Source: Ilumatobacteraceae bacterium
GTDB taxonomy: Bacteria; Actinomycetota; Acidimicrobiia; Acidimicrobiales; Ilumatobacteraceae
Direction of reading: 5' to 3'
Length of the DNA stretch: 24,000 bases
Assembly: GCA_963774765.1 (NCBI GenBank)
Contig: CAVZGP010000010.1
Location: 177,282-201,281 of the forward strand
In this document: positions 1 through 21,357 of the stretch, piece by piece
How the letters are laid out: each line of letters starts with the position of its first letter
How positions within the stretch are numbered: the first letter of the stretch is position 1
The notes under the pieces: model-generated
Database searches by the model: none
What the model was told of the DNA's origin: nothing
What the model saw: the letters and a program-made list of their open reading frames with translations, nothing else
Translations under genes and position numbers: made by a program

Positions 1-2242
1 GGAACCGCTGGCGATACTCCCAGGCGAGGTCGGCGACGCGAACGCACGCTTCGGGATCGTCACCGTTGACATGGAAGATCGGCGCCTGAACGGTCTTCGC
101 GACGTCGGAGCAGTACAGCGACGAACGGGCGTACTGCGGCGCCGTCGTGAAGCCGATCTGGTTGTTGATGATCAGATGGATCGTGCCACCGATGCGGTAG
201 CCGCCGATGTCGCTCATCGCCAGCGATTCAGCGACAACGCCCTGACCGGCAAATGCGGCGTCACCATGGATCAGCACCGGCAACACGCTGAACGCGCCAG
301 CCGGCTCGATCTGGTCCTGAAGCGCTCGAGCCACGCCCATCACGATCGGCCCGACCGTTTCGAGGTGGCTCGGATTGGCCGCCAACTCGACGGCGACGTC
401 GGCGCCCGACGGGCTGACGTACTTGCCCTTGATGCCGAGGTGATATTTCACGTCGCCGGAGCCCTGCACGGACGACGGGTCGATGTGGCCCTCGAATTCG
501 GAGAAGATCGCCTCGTAGCTCTTGCCCATGATGTTCGACAGCACGTTGAGCCGGCCGCGGTGCGCCATCCCCAACAGAGCGCCGTCGAACTCGGTGTCGG
601 CAGCATGCGACAGCACGGCGTCGAGAATCGGGATCGCCGACTCGGCGCCCTCGATGCCGAAGCGCTTCGTGCCGACGTACTTCGTGGCGAGAAACTTCTC
701 GAAGCTCTCCGCCGCGTTCAGCCGTTCGAGGATCCGGTGCTTGCGGTCCTTGGACACCGCCGGCTGGACACTTTCGAACTGCTCCTGGATCCACTGCTGC
801 TCGTCGGTGTTCTGGATGTGCATGTACTCGACGCCGATTGTTCGACAGTACGCGTCACGCAACACACCGAGCAGGTCGCCGAGACGCATCTTGTCGACGC
901 CACCGACGCCGTCGGTGAGGAACTCGCGATCGAGGTCCCAGATGGTGAGGCCGTAGGTGGCCGGGTCGAGCTCGCGCGGAGTCAACGGCTCCTTCCAGCG
1001 CAGTGGGTCGAGGTCGGCAATGAGGTGGCCGCGCACCCGGTAGACCCGGATCAACTTGGCGACTGCCATCTGCTTGGCGAGCATCGCCTCTTCGCGGTCG
1101 ATCGCGAACGTGTCGGGGCGCCACTTGACCGCCTCGTACGGCATGTCGAGCGCCTGGAAGACGTCTTCGTAGAAGTCGTGTTCGCCGAGCAGCAACTCGT
1201 GCACGCGCTTGAGGAACAAGCCGGACTCGGCGCCTTGGATGATCCGGTGGTCGTAGGTGCTCGTGACCGTGACGACCTTGCTGACGCCGAGCGAGCTGAG
1301 GTTGCGCCGATCCGAACCCTCGAACTCGGCGGGATAGTCGATGCTGCCGACGCCGACGATGACGGCCTGGCCGGGCATCAAGCGTGGCACCGACTGCACG
1401 GTGCCGATCGTGCCCGGGTTGGTGAGGCTGACGTTGGCGCCCATGAAGTCGTCGACGGTGAGCTTGTTCGTCTTGACCTTGCGGATGATCTCCTCGTAGG
1501 CAGCCAGGAAGCCGTTGAAGTCGAGCGTGTCGGCGTCGCGGAGAACGGGCACGACGAGCGTCCGGCCACCCGCCTTTTCGACGTCGACGGCGAGACCCAT
1601 GCTGACGTGCTCGTTCTCGACGACGCGGGGCTTGCCGTCGGCGCCTTCGGCGTAGGTGTTCTTCATCGCCGGCACGGCGTCGGCAATCGCGCGGACGATG
1701 GCGTAGCCGATCAGGTGCGTGAAGCTGACCTTGGTCTGGCCGGTCCGGGCACGGAAGCCATTGATCACCTTGCGATTGACCTCGAGCAGCTTGGCCGGAA
1801 CGTTGCGGAAGCTGGTCGCCGTCGGAACGGTCAGACTGCGCTCCATGTTCGCAGCGATCGCGGCACCAGCCCCGCGGATCGGCTTGCCGGGCTCGTCGGC
1901 GGGCGCGTCAGCAGCGCCAGGCGCCGGAGCGGGTGGCGCGGTGGACGCTGGTGCGGTTGCCGGGGCAGGTGCGGGCATCGGGGGCGCCGCCGCCGCAGCA
2001 ACGGTGCTGCCAGTGGAGCGGACGTCATCGGTCGACGCGCGGTGGGCATCCGCGACTGCCTGCACCGCCGGCGACGTGGCGGCTGCCGCCGCGATGCTGG
2101 GCGCCTGGGAGTGGTAGTCGGCGAAGAACTCCTGCCACGATTCGCTCACCGACGCCGGATCGGCGACGAACTGCTCGTACATCTCCTCGACGAGCCACGA
2201 GTTCGCCCCGAACCCCGACCCCTGACCGTCTGGTGCTACCAC
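1..2242 (-). CDS. kgd: 2-oxoglutarate dehydrogenase/decarboxylase of the actinobacterial fused E2-like/E1 type (Kgd/OdhA). N-terminal ~747 codons only; the C-terminus lies beyond the left window edge.
   Basis: Absent from the ORF track because it runs off the edge. My minus-strand translation from GTG (2242-2240) gives MVAPDGQGSGFGANSWLVEEMYEQFVADPASVSESWQEFF. This is followed by an Ala/Pro-rich linker, an acyltransferase block containing DHRIIQGAESGLFL, and the ThDP E1 core VLIHGDAAFAGQGVVAESL...GGTIHLIINNQIGFTT...APIFHVNGDDPEA. The 751-aa plus ORF at 71..2326 is its antisense shadow. Confidence 0.93.
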   Translation of the reverse strand, partial: MVAPDGQGSGFGANSWLVEEMYEQFVADPASVSESWQEFFADYHSQAPSIAAAAATSPAVQAVADAHRASTDDVRSTGSTVAAAAAPPMPAPAPATAPASTAPPAPAPGAADAPADEPGKPIRGAGAAIAANMERSLTVPTATSFRNVPAKLLEVNRKVINGFRARTGQTKVSFTHLIGYAIVRAIADAVPAMKNTYAEGADGKPRVVENEHVSMGLAVDVEKAGGRTLVVPVLRDADTLDFNGFLAAYEEIIRKVKTNKLTVDDFMGANVSLTNPGTIGTVQSVPRLMPGQAVIVGVGSIDYPAEFEGSDRRNLSSLGVSKVVTVTSTYDHRIIQGAESGLFLKRVHELLLGEHDFYEDVFQALDMPYEAVKWRPDTFAIDREEAMLAKQMAVAKLIRVYRVRGHLIADLDPLRWKEPLTPRELDPATYGLTIWDLDREFLTDGVGGVDKMRLGDLLGVLRDAYCRTIGVEYMHIQNTDEQQWIQEQFESVQPAVSKDRKHRILERLNAAESFEKFLATKYVGTKRFGIEGAESAIPILDAVLSHAADTEFDGALLGMAHRGRLNVLSNIMGKSYEAIFSEFEGHIDPSSVQGSGDVKYHLGIKGKYVSPSGADVAVELAANPSHLETVGPIVMGVARALQDQIEPAGAFSVLPVLIHGDAAFAGQGVVAESLAMSDIGGYRIGGTIHLIINNQIGFTTAPQYARSSLYCSDVAKTVQAPIFHVNGDDPEACVRVADLAWEYRQRF

Positions 2243-2849: not shown

Positions 2850-2882
2850 TGTTCCGTCTGGGGTCAGACCCCGGACGGAACA
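2850..2882. repeat. 33-nt near-perfect palindrome of the GGGGTCAGACCCC family, located in the 5' region of the FtsH-like gene.
   Basis: The sequence is tGTTCCGTCTGGGGTC-A-GACCCCGGACGGAACa. It has 16-nt arms centred on A2866, with one T/G (wobble) position. It lies between the divergent starts at 2748 and 2913, 30 nt upstream of the ATG. Confidence 0.85.
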
Positions 2883-2912
2883 CCGTGACACCAGCGACCG
2901 AAGGGGATCCTC

Positions 2913-4697: not shown

Positions 4698-4703
4698 CCG
4701 TTA

Positions 4704-4726
4704 CATCTGGGGTCTGACCCCTGGTG
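4704..4726. repeat. Palindrome of the GGGGTC(A/T)GACCCC family at a convergent gene junction; terminator-like position.
   Basis: The sequence is CATCTGGGGTC-T-GACCCCTGGTG, with 11-nt arms containing one mismatch and one wobble. It starts 7 nt after the FtsH-like stop (4697) and ends 14 nt before the stop of the convergent chaperone gene (4740). No T-tract follows it on either strand. Confidence 0.8.
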
Positions 4727-4739
4727 AAATCGCGCCGGC

Positions 4740-14710: not shown

Positions 14711-15538
14711 ATGAGCACACGTCCGATCGACCCGATTCGTCACGTCTCGAACGAGATGGTCCACGACTTCTCACGGGACGGCGTCACGGTGCTTCGCGGC
14801 GCGGTCGCCCCGACCTGGCTCGACCTGCTCGCCGAAGGAGTCGAGTACAACCGCACGCATCCGAGCCAGTGGTCGCACTGGTACACCAACCCCGACGAAG
14901 CCGTGGGTTTCTGGAGCGACTACGTCACGTGGCCGGACGTCGAGCAGTACCGGCGAGTGGTGTTCGACAGCGGACTCGCCGAGGTCGCCGGCCAACTGAT
15001 GGGTTCACGGACCGTACGGTTCTTCCACGAACACGTGCTGGTCAAGGAGCCCGGTGCCGCCGAGCCCACGCCGTGGCATCACGACGACCCCTACTACGGC
15101 ATCGACGGCATGCAGAACGTCAGCATGTGGATCGCGCTCGACGCGGTTCCTGCGTCGTCGGGACTGCAATTCATCGCCGGATCACATCTGTGGGGGCGTC
15201 GGTTCGTGCCGCGCAAGTTCATCGATCAGACCCCGTACGGCGAGGCCGACGAACGTTTCGAGTTGCTCCCCGACGGCGACGAGTTGGTCGGCGATCATCG
15301 ACTCCTGGGTTGGGACGTCGAGCCTGGCGACGTGCTCGCCTTCCACTACCGCACGTTGCACGGTGCGCCCGGCAACTCGCTGTCGACACCTCGACGAGCG
15401 GTCAGCCTGCGTTGGCTCGGCGACGATGCCCGCTTCGGTGAACGTCCCTGGACCACCTCGCCACCGTACGAACCGAGTGGTCTCGTGGTCGGCGGCCCGC
15501 TCGACGGCGACCCCCGCTTCCCCCTCGTCGTCAGCTGA
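14711..15538 (+). CDS. Phytanoyl-CoA dioxygenase (PhyH) family Fe(II)/2-oxoglutarate-dependent oxygenase.
   Basis: The sequence shows FSRDGVTVLRGAV, a facial triad candidate WHHDDPYY plus the distal His in YRTLHGAPGN, and RRAVSLRW (a 2OG-binding Arg context). A GAGGAG Shine-Dalgarno sequence lies 9 nt before the ATG. Confidence 0.8.
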   Translation: MSTRPIDPIRHVSNEMVHDFSRDGVTVLRGAVAPTWLDLLAEGVEYNRTHPSQWSHWYTNPDEAVGFWSDYVTWPDVEQYRRVVFDSGLAEVAGQLMGSRTVRFFHEHVLVKEPGAAEPTPWHHDDPYYGIDGMQNVSMWIALDAVPASSGLQFIAGSHLWGRRFVPRKFIDQTPYGEADERFELLPDGDELVGDHRLLGWDVEPGDVLAFHYRTLHGAPGNSLSTPRRAVSLRWLGDDARFGERPWTTSPPYEPSGLVVGGPLDGDPRFPLVVS

Positions 15539-15570
15539 CGTACACGATGTGCCAGAGGCCTCAGCGGAGC

Positions 15571-15721
15571 GGGAAACAGCGTCTCGGGACCCGAAGGAAT
15601 CACACGCCGCTGAGGTTCTCCCACCGATGAGCGAAGCGACCGGAGACGATCATCACAACCCACGAGATCCCCCGCTCATCGCAACGCCGACTTCCGCCCG
15701 ATCCGCTGAGACCCCAGGCAC
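15571..15721. repeat. Composite intergenic repeat, locus A: the conserved left and right flanks enclose one decayed hairpin unit.
   Basis: The left flank GGGAAACAGCGTCTCGGGACCCGAAGGAATCACACGCCGCTGAGGTTCTCCCACCGATGAGCGAA and the right flank GCTCATCGCAACGCCGACTTCCGCCCGATCCGCTGAGACCCCAGGCAC align base for base, with scattered substitutions, to the flanks of the array at 17548..17864. The internal unit has lost its right hairpin arm. Confidence 0.8.
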
Positions 15722-15760
15722 ATCTCGTACGTCGAGATGTCGTGCGGCCATGATGACGGG

Positions 15761-16702
15761 ATGACTCCCCCACTGCCTGCTGCGTTCGACAACCGGGTCA
15801 GCCGCGATCTCGGGGTCGACATCCCGATCGTCCAGGCCCCGATGGGATGGATCGCCCGATCACAGCTCGCCTCGGCAGTGTCGCAGGCCGGTGCGTGCGG
15901 GATCATCGAGACGTCGTCCGGCGAGCTCGACGTCGTGAAGGACGAGATCCGCAAGATGCGTGACCTCACCGATCGGCCGTTCGGGGTCAACATCGCCCAG
16001 GCGTTCGTGCGCGACCCTGCCATCGCCGAGTTCGTGATCGACCAGGGCGTCAAATTCGTGACGACGTCGGCCGGTTCACCAACGAAGTACACCGGGATCC
16101 TGAAGGAGGCGGGGCTGACGGTGTACCACGTCGTGCCGACGCTGGTCGCTGCGCTCAAGGCGGTCGACGCCGGCGTCGATGGCCTTGTGGTCGAGGGTGG
16201 CGAAGGTGGCGGGTTCAAGAGCCCGACGCCGGTGTCGACGATGGTGTTGCTGCCACTCGTGCGCTCGAAGGTCGACGTGCCGATCATCGCCGCGGGTGGC
16301 ATCACCGACGGGATGACGATGGCCGCAGCGTTCGCTCTGGGCGCCGAGGGTGTCCAGATGGGAACGCGGATGGTGTCGGCAACCGAATCGCCGGTTCACC
16401 AGAACTGGAAGCAGACGATCGTCGACGCCGCCGAGACCGACACGCTGTTCCTCAACCAGCGCCACTCCCCCGCGCTGCGAGCGCTGCGCACCGAGCGCAC
16501 CGAGGCGCTCGTGAACGCCGAGCACAACGTGTTCGCCGACTTCGGCAACGCGCACGATCTCTACTTCGGTGGCGACATGAACGCCGCGTTCGCGCTCTCG
16601 GGGCAGGTGGCCGGCCGCATCGAGTCGATCGAGCGCGTGTCGAAGATCATCGACGACACCATCGCAGAGTTCACCGCGACCGTCGCCCGCCTCGCCGGCT
16701 GA
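15761..16702 (+). CDS. Nitronate monooxygenase / 2-nitropropane dioxygenase family FMN oxidoreductase (NMO, FabK-like TIM barrel).
   Basis: The sequence shows IPIVQAPMGWIARSQLASAVSQAGACGIIETSS, the GxEGGGH-like EGGEGGGF, and IIAAGGITDG. The start is uncertain: ATG 15761 (MTPPLPAAF...) is preferred over the track's ATG at 15737, and neither has a clear Shine-Dalgarno sequence. Confidence 0.85.
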   Translation: MTPPLPAAFDNRVSRDLGVDIPIVQAPMGWIARSQLASAVSQAGACGIIETSSGELDVVKDEIRKMRDLTDRPFGVNIAQAFVRDPAIAEFVIDQGVKFVTTSAGSPTKYTGILKEAGLTVYHVVPTLVAALKAVDAGVDGLVVEGGEGGGFKSPTPVSTMVLLPLVRSKVDVPIIAAGGITDGMTMAAAFALGAEGVQMGTRMVSATESPVHQNWKQTIVDAAETDTLFLNQRHSPALRALRTERTEALVNAEHNVFADFGNAHDLYFGGDMNAAFALSGQVAGRIESIERVSKIIDDTIAEFTATVARLAG

Positions 16703-16707
16703 GTGTC

Positions 16708-16732
16708 ACGTCTGGGGTCAGACCCAAGATGT
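16708..16732. repeat. Palindrome of the GGGGTCAGACCC family at a convergent gene junction.
   Basis: The sequence is ACGTCTGGGGTC-A-GACCCAAGATGT, with 12-nt arms containing one mismatch and one wobble. It starts 6 nt after the NMO stop (16702). It also contains the stop codon and last 5 codons (GTSWV*) of the convergent nucleotidyltransferase gene. Confidence 0.8.
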
Positions 16733-17509
16733 ACCACTCTCGACGACGGCCTCGGTGAACGCGGCGGCGTCGAGGAGGTGAGCGCGGGTCGCCTGGCCAG
16801 GTGCTGCTCTGAGGTCGACCGCAGCGTGCAGCATGTCGGCGAAGTCTGGTGCACGGCGCGCAGCCCACCTCCCAGCCACCGACTTCGATGCCACGTCGCC
16901 GGTTTCCCACGTGTACAGCATTCGGGCGACACCGAGCGCCACCCATTCGAGCACGGCACCGTCGGCGGTCTCGCTGCTCGTGTCGGCCTCGATCGCCGAC
17001 GCCAAGCGTTCGCCGACACCTCGCCAGTAGGTCTGAAGGTTCTCGCGAACCCAGCTGCGCCGTTCACCGAGATCGATGTGGACGCCGAGACGGTCGGAGG
17101 CGTCGCCACGCAGCGCTACTCCGTACGTCGCAAACGTGTACCAGACGATCGGGTTGATCTCGAACGATTCGCCGTCGACGTGGTAGTCGCCGTCGAGCAC
17201 CCACGGCCGCTGCACCGCCATCGGCGCCACGACGAGATCACCCCACGCCACGTACGGACCATCGACAGCGATCGACACCTGCTCACGGACCCGTTCTTGG
17301 GCCGCCGCGAGGTCGCCGAACAGGTCCGGGTCGGATGGGTCGGCCACGACGGCGACGACGTCGATGTCGCTGTGTGGTGTCCAGTCGTCGAGCGCCACCG
17401 AGCCCACCACGTAGAGGCCCTCGACGACACCCGGCGCCACGTCATCGTGCGCGTCGAGCCAGGCAGCGAGTGCCTCGGCGACGGGGGCCGGCAAGAGCAC
17501 GGGTTCCAT
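16718..17509 (-). CDS. Nucleotidyltransferase-domain protein, AadA/ANT(3'')-like (aminoglycoside adenylyltransferase fold with a C-terminal helical domain).
   Basis: The Pol-beta-type NTase motif is GLYVVGSVALDDWTPHSDIDVVAVV. The 263-aa length and the C-terminal helical region (LEWVALGVARMLYTWETGDVASK) resemble AadA-type enzymes. The substrate cannot be inferred. Confidence 0.7.
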   Translation of the reverse strand: MEPVLLPAPVAEALAAWLDAHDDVAPGVVEGLYVVGSVALDDWTPHSDIDVVAVVADPSDPDLFGDLAAAQERVREQVSIAVDGPYVAWGDLVVAPMAVQRPWVLDGDYHVDGESFEINPIVWYTFATYGVALRGDASDRLGVHIDLGERRSWVRENLQTYWRGVGERLASAIEADTSSETADGAVLEWVALGVARMLYTWETGDVASKSVAGRWAARRAPDFADMLHAAVDLRAAPGQATRAHLLDAAAFTEAVVESGTSWV

Positions 17510-17547
17510 CGTGCGAAGTTACGCGGTGCCAGGGGCCGCAGGGGATT

Positions 17548-17864
17548 GGGAAACAGCGTTTTTCGGGACTCGAACGAATCACGTGCCGCTGAGAACCTCC
17601 CACCGATGAGCGAACCGACCGGATACGGCGGTTTCGCTCATCGCAACCCGCGAGAATCCCCCACCGATGAGCGAACCGACCGGATACAGCGGTTTCGCTC
17701 ATCGCAACCCGCGAGAACCCCCACCGATGAGCGAACCGACCGGATACAGCGGTTTCGCTCATCGCAACCCGCGGGAACCCCGACCGATGAGCGAACCGAC
17801 CGGATACGGCGGTTTCGCTCATCGCATCGCCAACTCCAGCCCAATCCGCTGACGCCCCAGGCAC
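17548..17864. repeat. Composite intergenic repeat, locus B: the conserved flanks enclose four tandem 61/60/60/60-bp hairpin units.
   Basis: The units start at 17601, 17662, 17722 and 17782. Each contains GATGAGCGAA-N18-TTCGCTCATC (hairpins at 17605-17642, 17666-17703, 17726-17763 and 17786-17823), joined by the near-invariant linker GCAACCCGCGAGAAyCCCCCACC. The flanks match locus A. The element ends 47 nt before the ettA ATG. Confidence 0.92.
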
Positions 17865-17911
17865 CGGCGCAACCACCCGCTCGCAACGGCGCCGTTAGCC
17901 TCGGGCCCACC

Positions 17912-19583
<1,672 letters not shown>

Positions 19584-19585
<2 letters not shown>

Positions 19586-19618
19586 ATTGCACCAGGGGTC
19601 AGACCCCTGCTGCAATTC
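19584..19618. repeat. 35-nt palindrome of the GGGGTCAGACCCC family, located between ettA and cysQ.
   Basis: The sequence is GAATTGCACCAGGGGTC-A-GACCCCTGCTGCAATTC, with 17-nt arms and one mismatch. It overlaps the last two bases of the ettA TGA stop and ends 19 nt before the cysQ ATG. Confidence 0.88.
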
Positions 19619-21230: not shown

Positions 21231-21340
21231 CACGCCCCACCGATGAGCGAACCAACCGGATACGGCGGTTTCGCTCATCGCAACCCCAGCACACGCCCCA
21301 CCGATGAGCGAACCAACCGGATACGGCGGTTTCGCTCATC
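21231..21340. repeat. Locus C of the hairpin-unit repeat: two tandem copies with a 61-bp period and no conserved flanks.
   Basis: CACGCCCCACCGATGAGCGAACCAACCGGATACGGCGGTTTCGCTCATCGC appears twice, with hairpins at 21242-21279 and 21303-21340. The locus lies between the convergent crotonase (stop 21217) and CoA-transferase (stop 21362) genes. Confidence 0.9.
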
Positions 21341-21357
21341 GCGGGACCGGTCCCGCG
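21340..21357. repeat. Perfect 18-nt palindrome abutting the last hairpin unit; terminator-like position.
   Basis: CGCGGGACC|GGTCCCGCG is exactly self-complementary. It lies 4 nt from the CoA-transferase stop codon (21362-21364) and shares its first base with the end of the preceding hairpin. No T-tract is present. Confidence 0.6.

Follow-up and report, generated by a model that had tools for sequence, protein, structure and literature searches.

Two intergenic repeats in an Ilumatobacteraceae genome are probably copies of a modular, non-autonomous MITE seated in REP-like palindromes

The window is the whole 24,000-nucleotide stretch of DNA analysed here, positions 177282-201281 of contig C10 in a draft genome of an Ilumatobacteraceae bacterium (4.54 Mb, 66.6% GC, 31 contigs). 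Its genes were called with a codon log-odds caller; a caller based on GC3 was discarded because it fused ettA with a shadow frame upstream. A PhyH-like gene is followed by locus A, the NMO gene, a nucleotidyltransferase gene, locus B, and ettA (Table 1). Locus A lies between tandem genes, locus B between divergent genes, and a further repeat, locus C, between convergent genes. The 960-aa open frame at 16703-19585, which extends from the NMO stop across the nucleotidyltransferase gene in antisense and on through locus B into ettA, was rejected as a gene: it is a high-GC shadow frame, and the true start of ettA is at 17912. Between the palindrome of locus A and the conserved ATGACGGGATGACTCC start region of NMO, the window has about 14 additional bases (ATGTCGTGCGGCCATG..., within 15734-15760) relative to the two nearest species, G016 and G024. 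These bases create the in-frame alternative NMO starts at 15737 and 15761.

Loci A and B resemble each other on both sides of their central hairpins, as a sequence-only reading of the window had noticed. The left flanks are 86% identical (15584-15648 and 17563-17627), their outer part is 82% identical (15544-15582 and 17521-17559), and the respective offsets of 1979 and 1977 between the loci give the 2-nt indel of that reading. The right flanks are again 86% identical (15673-15721 and 17816-17864). This similarity is far above chance. The genome holds about 30 occurrences of the same modules (nhmmer, E-values down to 1e-21). Both loci have the same orientation and end just 5' of a start codon, locus A 16-40 nt before that of NMO and locus B 47 nt before that of ettA. 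The four intact units seen at locus B are there, in a tandem array with a 60-nt period (17586-17826) and with hairpins at 17604-17643, 17665-17704, 17725-17764, and 17785-17824.

Other parts of the first description change. With the inverted ends included, both loci are longer than the coordinates first given and span 15537-15733 (locus A) and 17518-17874 (locus B). Locus A had been described as a single unit that has lost its right arm. A global alignment with a two-unit form of locus B shows instead an array of two units that carries two internal deletions. What is left of unit 1 is its left arm and a decayed right arm; after the spacer, unit 2 is represented by its right arm. The inverted copy of CCTCAGCGG is present at locus A as stated, but it is not restricted to this locus: it belongs to the left terminal inverted repeat (TIR) of nearly every copy, and its counterpart at locus B is a mutated version. 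The left module of locus A contains a small TTCGGGACCCGAA hairpin and the motif CCGCTGAG. Each locus is predicted to fold into a long terminal stem around the internal hairpins (z = -9.7 and -4.7).

Table 1. Genes and repeat parts around loci A, B, and C, in window coordinates.
Feature	Position	Strand	Basis or remark
PhyH-like gene	14711-15538	+	own gene call; TGA stop 15536-15538
Locus A, older palindrome, left half (GACGTACACGAT-GTGCC)	15537-15553	+	overlaps the TGA of the PhyH-like gene; palindrome at orthologous spot in relatives
Locus A, central base W (A), left copy of putative target-site duplication	15554	+	A flanks both ends
Locus A, left TIR of the core	15555-15573	+	pairs with 15697-15715; consensus common to ~30 copies
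Locus A, left internal module (A module)	15574-15624	+	86% identity to locus B; nhmmer family with 32 full matches
Locus A, what remains of two hairpin units (B modules) after two internal deletions	15625-15681	+	global alignment
Locus A, right internal module (C module)	15682-15696	+	repeat match to locus B
Locus A, right TIR	15697-15715	+	repeat match to locus B; pairs with 15555-15573
Locus A, central base W (A), right copy	15716	+	A at both core ends
Locus A, older palindrome, right half (GGCAC-ATCTCGTACGTC)	15717-15733	+	end comparison and relatives
NMO	15761-16702	+	own gene call
Nucleotidyltransferase	16718-17509	-	own gene call
Locus B, older palindrome, left half (GTTACGCG-GTGCC)	17518-17530	+	end comparison
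Locus B, central base W (A), left copy	17531	+	A at both core ends
Locus B, left TIR	17532-17550	+	two mismatches to consensus
Locus B, left internal module (A module)	17551-17603	+	repeat match to locus A; nhmmer
Locus B, four tandem hairpin units	17604-17824	+	conserved linkers of 20-21 nt
Locus B, right internal module (C module)	17825-17839	+	repeat match to locus A
Locus B, right TIR	17840-17858	+	core length 327 nt
Locus B, central base W (A), right copy	17859	+	A at both core ends
Locus B, older palindrome, right half (GGCAC-CGGCGCAACC)	17860-17874	+	end comparison
ettA	17912-19585	+	own gene call
Locus C, pair of hairpin units of this family lacking flank modules	21236-21345	+	between convergent enoyl-CoA hydratase and CoA-transferase genes

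The sequence-only reading left two possibilities for the pair, a mobile or recombinogenic composite with expandable internal modules or a leader shared by unrelated genes, and discrete ends were what a mobile unit called for. Such ends exist. The core is bounded by 19-nt TIRs with the consensus GGGGCCTCAGCGGATTGGG and is composed of a left module of about 50 nt, one to four hairpin units of 60/61 nt, and a right module of about 15 nt. Pairing of the left with the right end extends outward from the TIRs, through GTGCC/GGCAC and then 8-12 more bases. This outer sequence belongs to something else: the core sits at the exact centre of an older, genus-wide REP-like palindrome of the form arms-GTGCC-W-GGCAC-arms. 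Two arm types, GGTGACGCG and GACGTACACGAT, surround the same core. With at most one mismatch, the palindrome CGGTGCCWGGCACCG has 46-47 copies in each of G014 and G007, both without the core, and 12 intact copies in this genome (controls, 0-5). The target palindrome is thus an older repeat, independent of the core. The outer arms were also considered as the element's own inverted repeat, and this was rejected because the palindrome is intact at empty sites and in core-less genomes.

A putative target-site duplication is found as well: the base at the palindrome's centre occurs on each side of the core. Among the 23 copies whose ends align without gaps, complementarity between left and right end averages 78% over 25 positions. 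The W position is complementary in only 3/23 and carries the identical base at both ends in 14/23 (binomial p = 0.013; seven A/A, six T/T, one G/G). Copies with A/A and with T/T are interspersed in a tree of the core sequences, which are short and leave the tree weakly resolved. Nearly balanced and not bound to clades, the two states fit independent insertions, in either orientation, into a palindrome of which the single asymmetric base is duplicated. Since the target is palindromic, the duplication could be W, CWG, or CCWGG (1, 3, or 5 nt), and for the same reason it could be confused with part of the inverted repeat, which weighs against a transposed element.

In this genome, iterated nhmmer searches with flank profiles find 32 full left modules with matching right ends, on 12 contigs. 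A cruder regex classification of array flanks also gives 32, with locus A left out because its hairpin is too decayed to count as an array; a "class II" flank count of 26 is unreliable, its regex definition being loose. From TIR to TIR the copies measure 111-354 nt (161 nt at locus A, 327 nt at locus B), and the sizes cluster near 144, 204, 265, and 327 nt, a step of about 61 nt that equals one unit. No gene-sized segment lies between paired 19-nt ends in this genome, the maximum being 354 nt, and one weak 1,880-nt end pair is taken as chance. Divergence among the copies is roughly 10-20%, as judged by eye from the core alignment.

All 32 composites are intergenic and non-coding, and all hairpin arrays are intergenic. 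A table of orientation and gene context, a check that the sequence-only reading had proposed, places 10 composites between convergent, 3 between divergent, and 19 between tandem genes (7 sense and 12 antisense, not significant). The hairpin array is closer to the upstream stop than to the downstream start in 15 of the 19 tandem contexts. Measured against the amount of intergenic DNA in each type of gene context, hairpin arrays are enriched in convergent regions (54 observed, 25 expected) and depleted in divergent ones (28 observed, 45 expected; p = 2e-9). An orientation bias of solo arrays (p = 0.003) was discarded: arrays of indeterminate orientation had been counted as antisense, and once these are excluded the bias is not significant.

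The hairpin unit is a repeat in its own right and far more abundant than the composite. A blastn-short census gives about 347 units in about 170 arrays of one to six units, mostly two. Most arrays have no flank modules, and the internal unit stands alone in 112 of the 170. Hairpin units are mostly solitary in this sense and lie near the 3' ends of genes. Within an array, the units stand in direct tandem, head to tail, with a single period and a conserved linker. Their identity is 96.9% within arrays, where 54% of pairs are identical, and 86.8% between arrays, where 3.8% are. Near-identity within an array indicates that arrays grow or are homogenised locally. Units of the CGATGAGCG type also occur with other flanks.

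The distribution of the parts among relatives differs. The 19-nt end occurs 50 times in this genome, four times in G016, and twice in G024. In the remaining 298 genomes of the family that were searched, its counts do not rise above control level. Across the 24 genomes of the genus, the left module is found outside this genome in G024 only, with two matches. The hairpin stem pattern occurs at more than 112 loci; of the 80 records listed, almost every one is an Ilumatobacteraceae MAG, which also shows the lineage of the window. Flank modules accompany none of the hairpin loci of relatives among the 112 matches listed. As the unit is widespread and the ends and left module are nearly confined to this genome, the unit is old and the shell around it is a lineage-specific amplification.

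The orthologous intergenic sites examined, a comparison also suggested at the outset, lack the core. It is absent in G016 and G024 at 10/10 sites, namely upstream of ettA, upstream of NMO, and at eight further composites. The cleanest pair is C10:235770, where both species have an intact 41-nt palindrome with the centre GTGCC-A-GGCAC; here the core is inserted exactly at this centre, with an A on each side. The site of locus A in G016, G024, and G004 carries a short, uninterrupted palindrome and no core. Its centre is an intact GTGCCAGGCAC in G004 and is altered in G016 and G024, where it can also be read as the remnant of a deletion, a point against insertion. As supporting evidence, a contig from the best-matching sediment metagenome, which represents a related organism, skips 15545-15752 and has 28 other letters with GTGCCTGGCAC instead. 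Two other sites, C31:132425 and C30:89560, lack the palindrome as well as the core in the relatives, which have only a TGACCGG-type sequence at convergent or terminal stops. For these two sites, the absence of the palindrome in relatives leads us to assume a two-step history, with the palindrome first, and this need for an extra step counts against the insertion reading.

Upstream of ettA, the element is present in 0/24 genus members with an ettA match, and the upstream gene order varies among these 24. What does recur directly 5' of ettA, with small variations and in 24/24 (loci L124-L147), is GTTAGCCTCG followed by about eight variable bases and ACCATG. In the window this motif lies at 17894-17914, outside the element, and it may be the -10-like box of a very short or leaderless transcript. 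A similar TAGCCTCG precedes the gene downstream of C31:135110. At this position, L126 (G024), L129 (G014), and L133 (G007) carry a different repeat, a long palindrome (CCCGAAATTCGGAGC...GCTCCGAATTTCGGG). The junction upstream of ettA attracts several repeat families. Upstream of NMO, the element is absent in five relatives.

Locus C shows the hairpin unit without a shell. At its orthologous site, downstream of the enoyl-CoA hydratase gene, five relatives (loci L163-L167) also have hairpins. Their lower stem is largely conserved; the upper stem has diverged and is still predicted to pair in most relatives, and in G004 one of the two units folds differently. This predicted pairing suggests constraint on structure, like that on 3'-end hairpins. 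Hairpin units might be selected as 3'-end RNA or DNA structures. No T-tract follows them, and no consensus terminator was called in them.

The ends and the target also enclose other interiors. G016 and G024 have variants with reversed units and different side modules. A second type has the same ends and the same palindrome centre around another hairpin (GTGTGAGCG..CGCTCACAC) and is found at C16:38303-38566 and C24:147008-147281; partial copies lie at C9:540462, C9:804298, and C31:77025. At C31:134880-135110, a hairpin-array insert is bounded by a 38-nt direct target duplication that includes a whole palindrome. An insert at locus L116 of G024 (about 1250-1700, minus strand) has a target duplication of about 55 nt that includes the 3' end of the upstream gene. 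We know of no ordinary transposase that makes duplications of 38-55 nt.

An autonomous IS with the same ends was sought in this genome, 300 family genomes, plasmids, and metagenomes, and none was found. The assembly is 94.6% complete, which makes an unassembled IS possible. In the metagenomes, the 19-nt end matched 37 singletons that varied in GC content and lacked paired ends; these are read as chance matches. The ends begin with GGGG and may resemble those of the Tn3 family; a Tn3-type origin was rejected because the genome has no match to the Tn3-type transposase (PF01526) and the ends have no plasmid match. The genome has five IS4/IS5-type genes (PF01609). The 19-nt ends lie near none of them, and all five were dismissed as partners since matching ends are absent nearby.

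Three RAYT-like Y1 transposase genes (PF01797) are present, at C15:33282-34127, C11:789360-790109, and C11:201909-202745, and are 43-55% identical to one another. Their flanks carry three distinct palindromic families, of the GGACGGGGCCGGGGAGGACC, GGGGTCAGACCCC, and GGTGTCTGACACC types. The GGTGTCTGACACC family resembles the target GGTGCC-W-GGCACC and its empty-site variants. The 19-nt ends or the CGATGAGCG hairpin flank 0/3 of these genes, and no RAYT gene lies near the hairpins of relatives among the 112 loci listed. A RAYT enzyme was rejected as mobiliser of the hairpin because all three genes are flanked by other repeat families. The GGGGTCAGACCCC core also defines a second palindromic family at gene ends in the window (2850-2883, 4699-4732, 16704-16737, and 19586-19615). 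Its motif lies directly upstream of the RAYT-type gene C11:789360-790109 (C11:789300-789360), and it is probably a RAYT-associated REP family.

We consider it likely that loci A and B both belong to a modular MITE of the form A-Bn-C, non-autonomous and specific to this lineage, that lies inside REP-like palindromes. The first of the two early proposals, a mobile or recombinogenic composite with expandable modules, is borne out by the discrete ends, the duplicated base, the roughly 32 copies, the empty sites, the 61-nt steps, and the homogeneity of units. The features expected of a MITE are a size below about 500 bp, no coding content, TIRs, a target-site duplication, and dispersed copies with filled and empty sites, and all of these are observed. 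A cognate autonomous IS, which is usual for a MITE and not obligatory, was not found in the genomes, plasmids, and metagenomes searched. The ends, the target, and the empty sites in related species are observed, and the enzyme and its stagger are what we infer. A transposase would have recognised the 19-nt ends and the palindrome centre and would have cut with a 1-, 3-, or 5-nt stagger, duplicating W, CWG, or CCWGG, much as REP-targeting insertion sequences do. The number of units inside an element changes by local duplication or deletion. The enzyme would since have been lost, or its gene may be unassembled, and the copies are now apparently dormant; because they have diverged, no movement is demonstrably recent. 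Any effect on NMO or ettA would be incidental, the result of a strongly folding insert between the upstream gene and the start regions.

Other routes to the same structure need to be weighed. It seems unlikely that the repeat is of the REP/BIME type and was moved by a RAYT, that is, by an HUH enzyme acting on single-stranded hairpins and not by a DDE enzyme, with the core as a REPIN-like doublet grown within a REP. The three RAYT genes, each with its own palindromic family, one of them (GGTGTCTGACACC) like the target, fit such an origin, as do the lack of a DDE partner and the highly structured, REP-like elements clustered near 3' ends. The flanks of those genes hold neither the 19-nt ends nor the CGATGAGCG hairpin, however, and RAYT genes are equally absent from the hairpin loci listed in relatives. 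The units stand in direct tandem, whereas those of BIMEs and REPINs alternate in orientation, and the duplicated central base is unexpected from IS200/IS605-type transposition. To our knowledge, transposition of that type makes no target duplication. The recombinogenic option of the sequence-only reading is a poor candidate, and we rate it as quite improbable: composites would have been put together and dispersed chiefly when palindromes recombined, underwent gene conversion, or served in template switching, with no dedicated transposase. It would account for the shuffled modules (the same ends with different interiors, the same units with different flanks), for the 38-55 nt direct target duplications, and for units homogenised within arrays. 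It sits badly with discrete 19-nt ends at one target position in about 30 copies and with A/A and T/T states that are nearly balanced and not clade-bound, unlike the product of one donor copied with its flanks. The palindrome arms, at 13-17 nt, are also presumably short for homologous exchange.

The second early proposal, a cis-regulatory leader (an attenuator, a riboswitch-like RNA, or an operator array) shared by NMO, ettA, and others, does not survive and is now highly improbable. Loci A and B do lie 5' of plus-strand genes in the same orientation, the predicted fold is very stable, and related elements such as BOX can modulate neighbouring genes (PMC3049150). Yet 10 of the 32 copies lie between convergent genes with no start codon following, orientation in tandem contexts is mixed, and most tandem-context arrays are nearer to the upstream stop. 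At ettA, the part that recurs in the genus is the GTTAGCCTCG..ACCATG motif outside the element, while the element itself is missing there and upstream of NMO in relatives. Rfam gives no match at gathering thresholds and two chance-level matches at E up to 1, and neither a promoter nor a terminator consensus was called in the element. Copies without a fixed orientation or position relative to genes had been named beforehand as the result that would speak against a leader, and the context table gives that result. The nearness to two start codons comes from the element filling short intergenic regions. A separate and rather doubtful idea is that the 19-nt ends and the palindrome-centre target form a shell for different hairpin cargoes, with at least three interiors, which a host enzyme acting on extruded hairpins might move. 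This mover might be one of the three RAYT-type HUH enzymes or another enzyme. Movement by a host enzyme is conceivable because the shell carries different cargoes and no DDE partner is found in the family. If true, REP palindromes would be acquiring structured modules in their loops by a route not described before.

The preferred reading, a MITE inside REP-like palindromes, has several consequences. It removes a false lead, that of a leader RNA common to NMO and ettA. It describes layered intergenic repeats in soil Ilumatobacteraceae (Acidimicrobiia), a lineage that has received little study, with an old REP-like palindrome, a MITE shell, and a tandem-expanding unit. Such repeats break up assemblies and generate long spurious frames, of which the 960-aa frame is an example. 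Sites that are cleanly filled or empty could be used as strain markers, and the system is a test bed for how modular BOX-like elements arise. A full-text literature search found no paper on repeats in Ilumatobacter or Ilumatobacteraceae.

Mycobacterial interspersed repetitive units (MIRU) likewise form tandem arrays between genes of an actinobacterium; their repeats are 40-100 bp long and vary in copy number. They are described as lying within operons, with overlapping short reading frames, and are not known to form hairpin units inside an inverted-repeat shell. The REP, BIME, and REPIN repeats share with the present system short GC-rich hairpins in hundreds of copies, clustering, and a bias to convergent regions and 3' ends. 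Unlike these RAYT-associated repeats, the element is a composite with inverted ends, a duplicated target base, and units in direct tandem.

The BOX elements of S. pneumoniae and S. suis are the closest in architecture. They are composed of boxA-boxBn-boxC, where the end modules form inverted ends and the internal modules fold independently (PMC3049150). Their length varies by gain and loss of internal modules, and a past burst was followed by dormancy; the end modules around one and the same boxB can differ in S. suis (PMC3049150). The element described here has the same A-Bn-C build, with one to four B units and steps of about 61 nt. This resemblance is of architecture only, and the element is thus not filed as a member of the BOX family; a relation in sequence is not expected. 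Unlike BOX, it is found in a high-GC acidimicrobial host, no transposase candidate was found here while one has been proposed for BOX, the internal unit is far more often alone, and the element sits inside the centre of another palindromic repeat.

Insertion into REP-like palindromes is also known from IS1397, ISKpn1, ISPpu9, ISPpu10, and IS621, which insert specifically into repetitive extragenic palindromes, a target choice ascribed to their transposase (PMC1525189, PMC3184786). The choice of target is shared. These IS carry a transposase gene, whereas the present element is a non-coding shell of 111-354 nt, and the IS110-type members have no inverted ends.

The classical MITEs, e.g., Correia/NEMIS, RUP, ERIC, Nezha, and Chunjie, are small and non-coding, with inverted ends and a target duplication (PMC3184786). 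The element agrees with them in its highly paired structure, its intergenic location, and its filled and empty sites in relatives (PMC3184786). It differs in being GC-rich and not AT-rich, in its palindromic GC-rich target in place of a TA-type target, in the modular interior with a variable tandem array, and in that no parent IS was found. It is a new MITE family of a familiar type, and a neatly layered repeat system.
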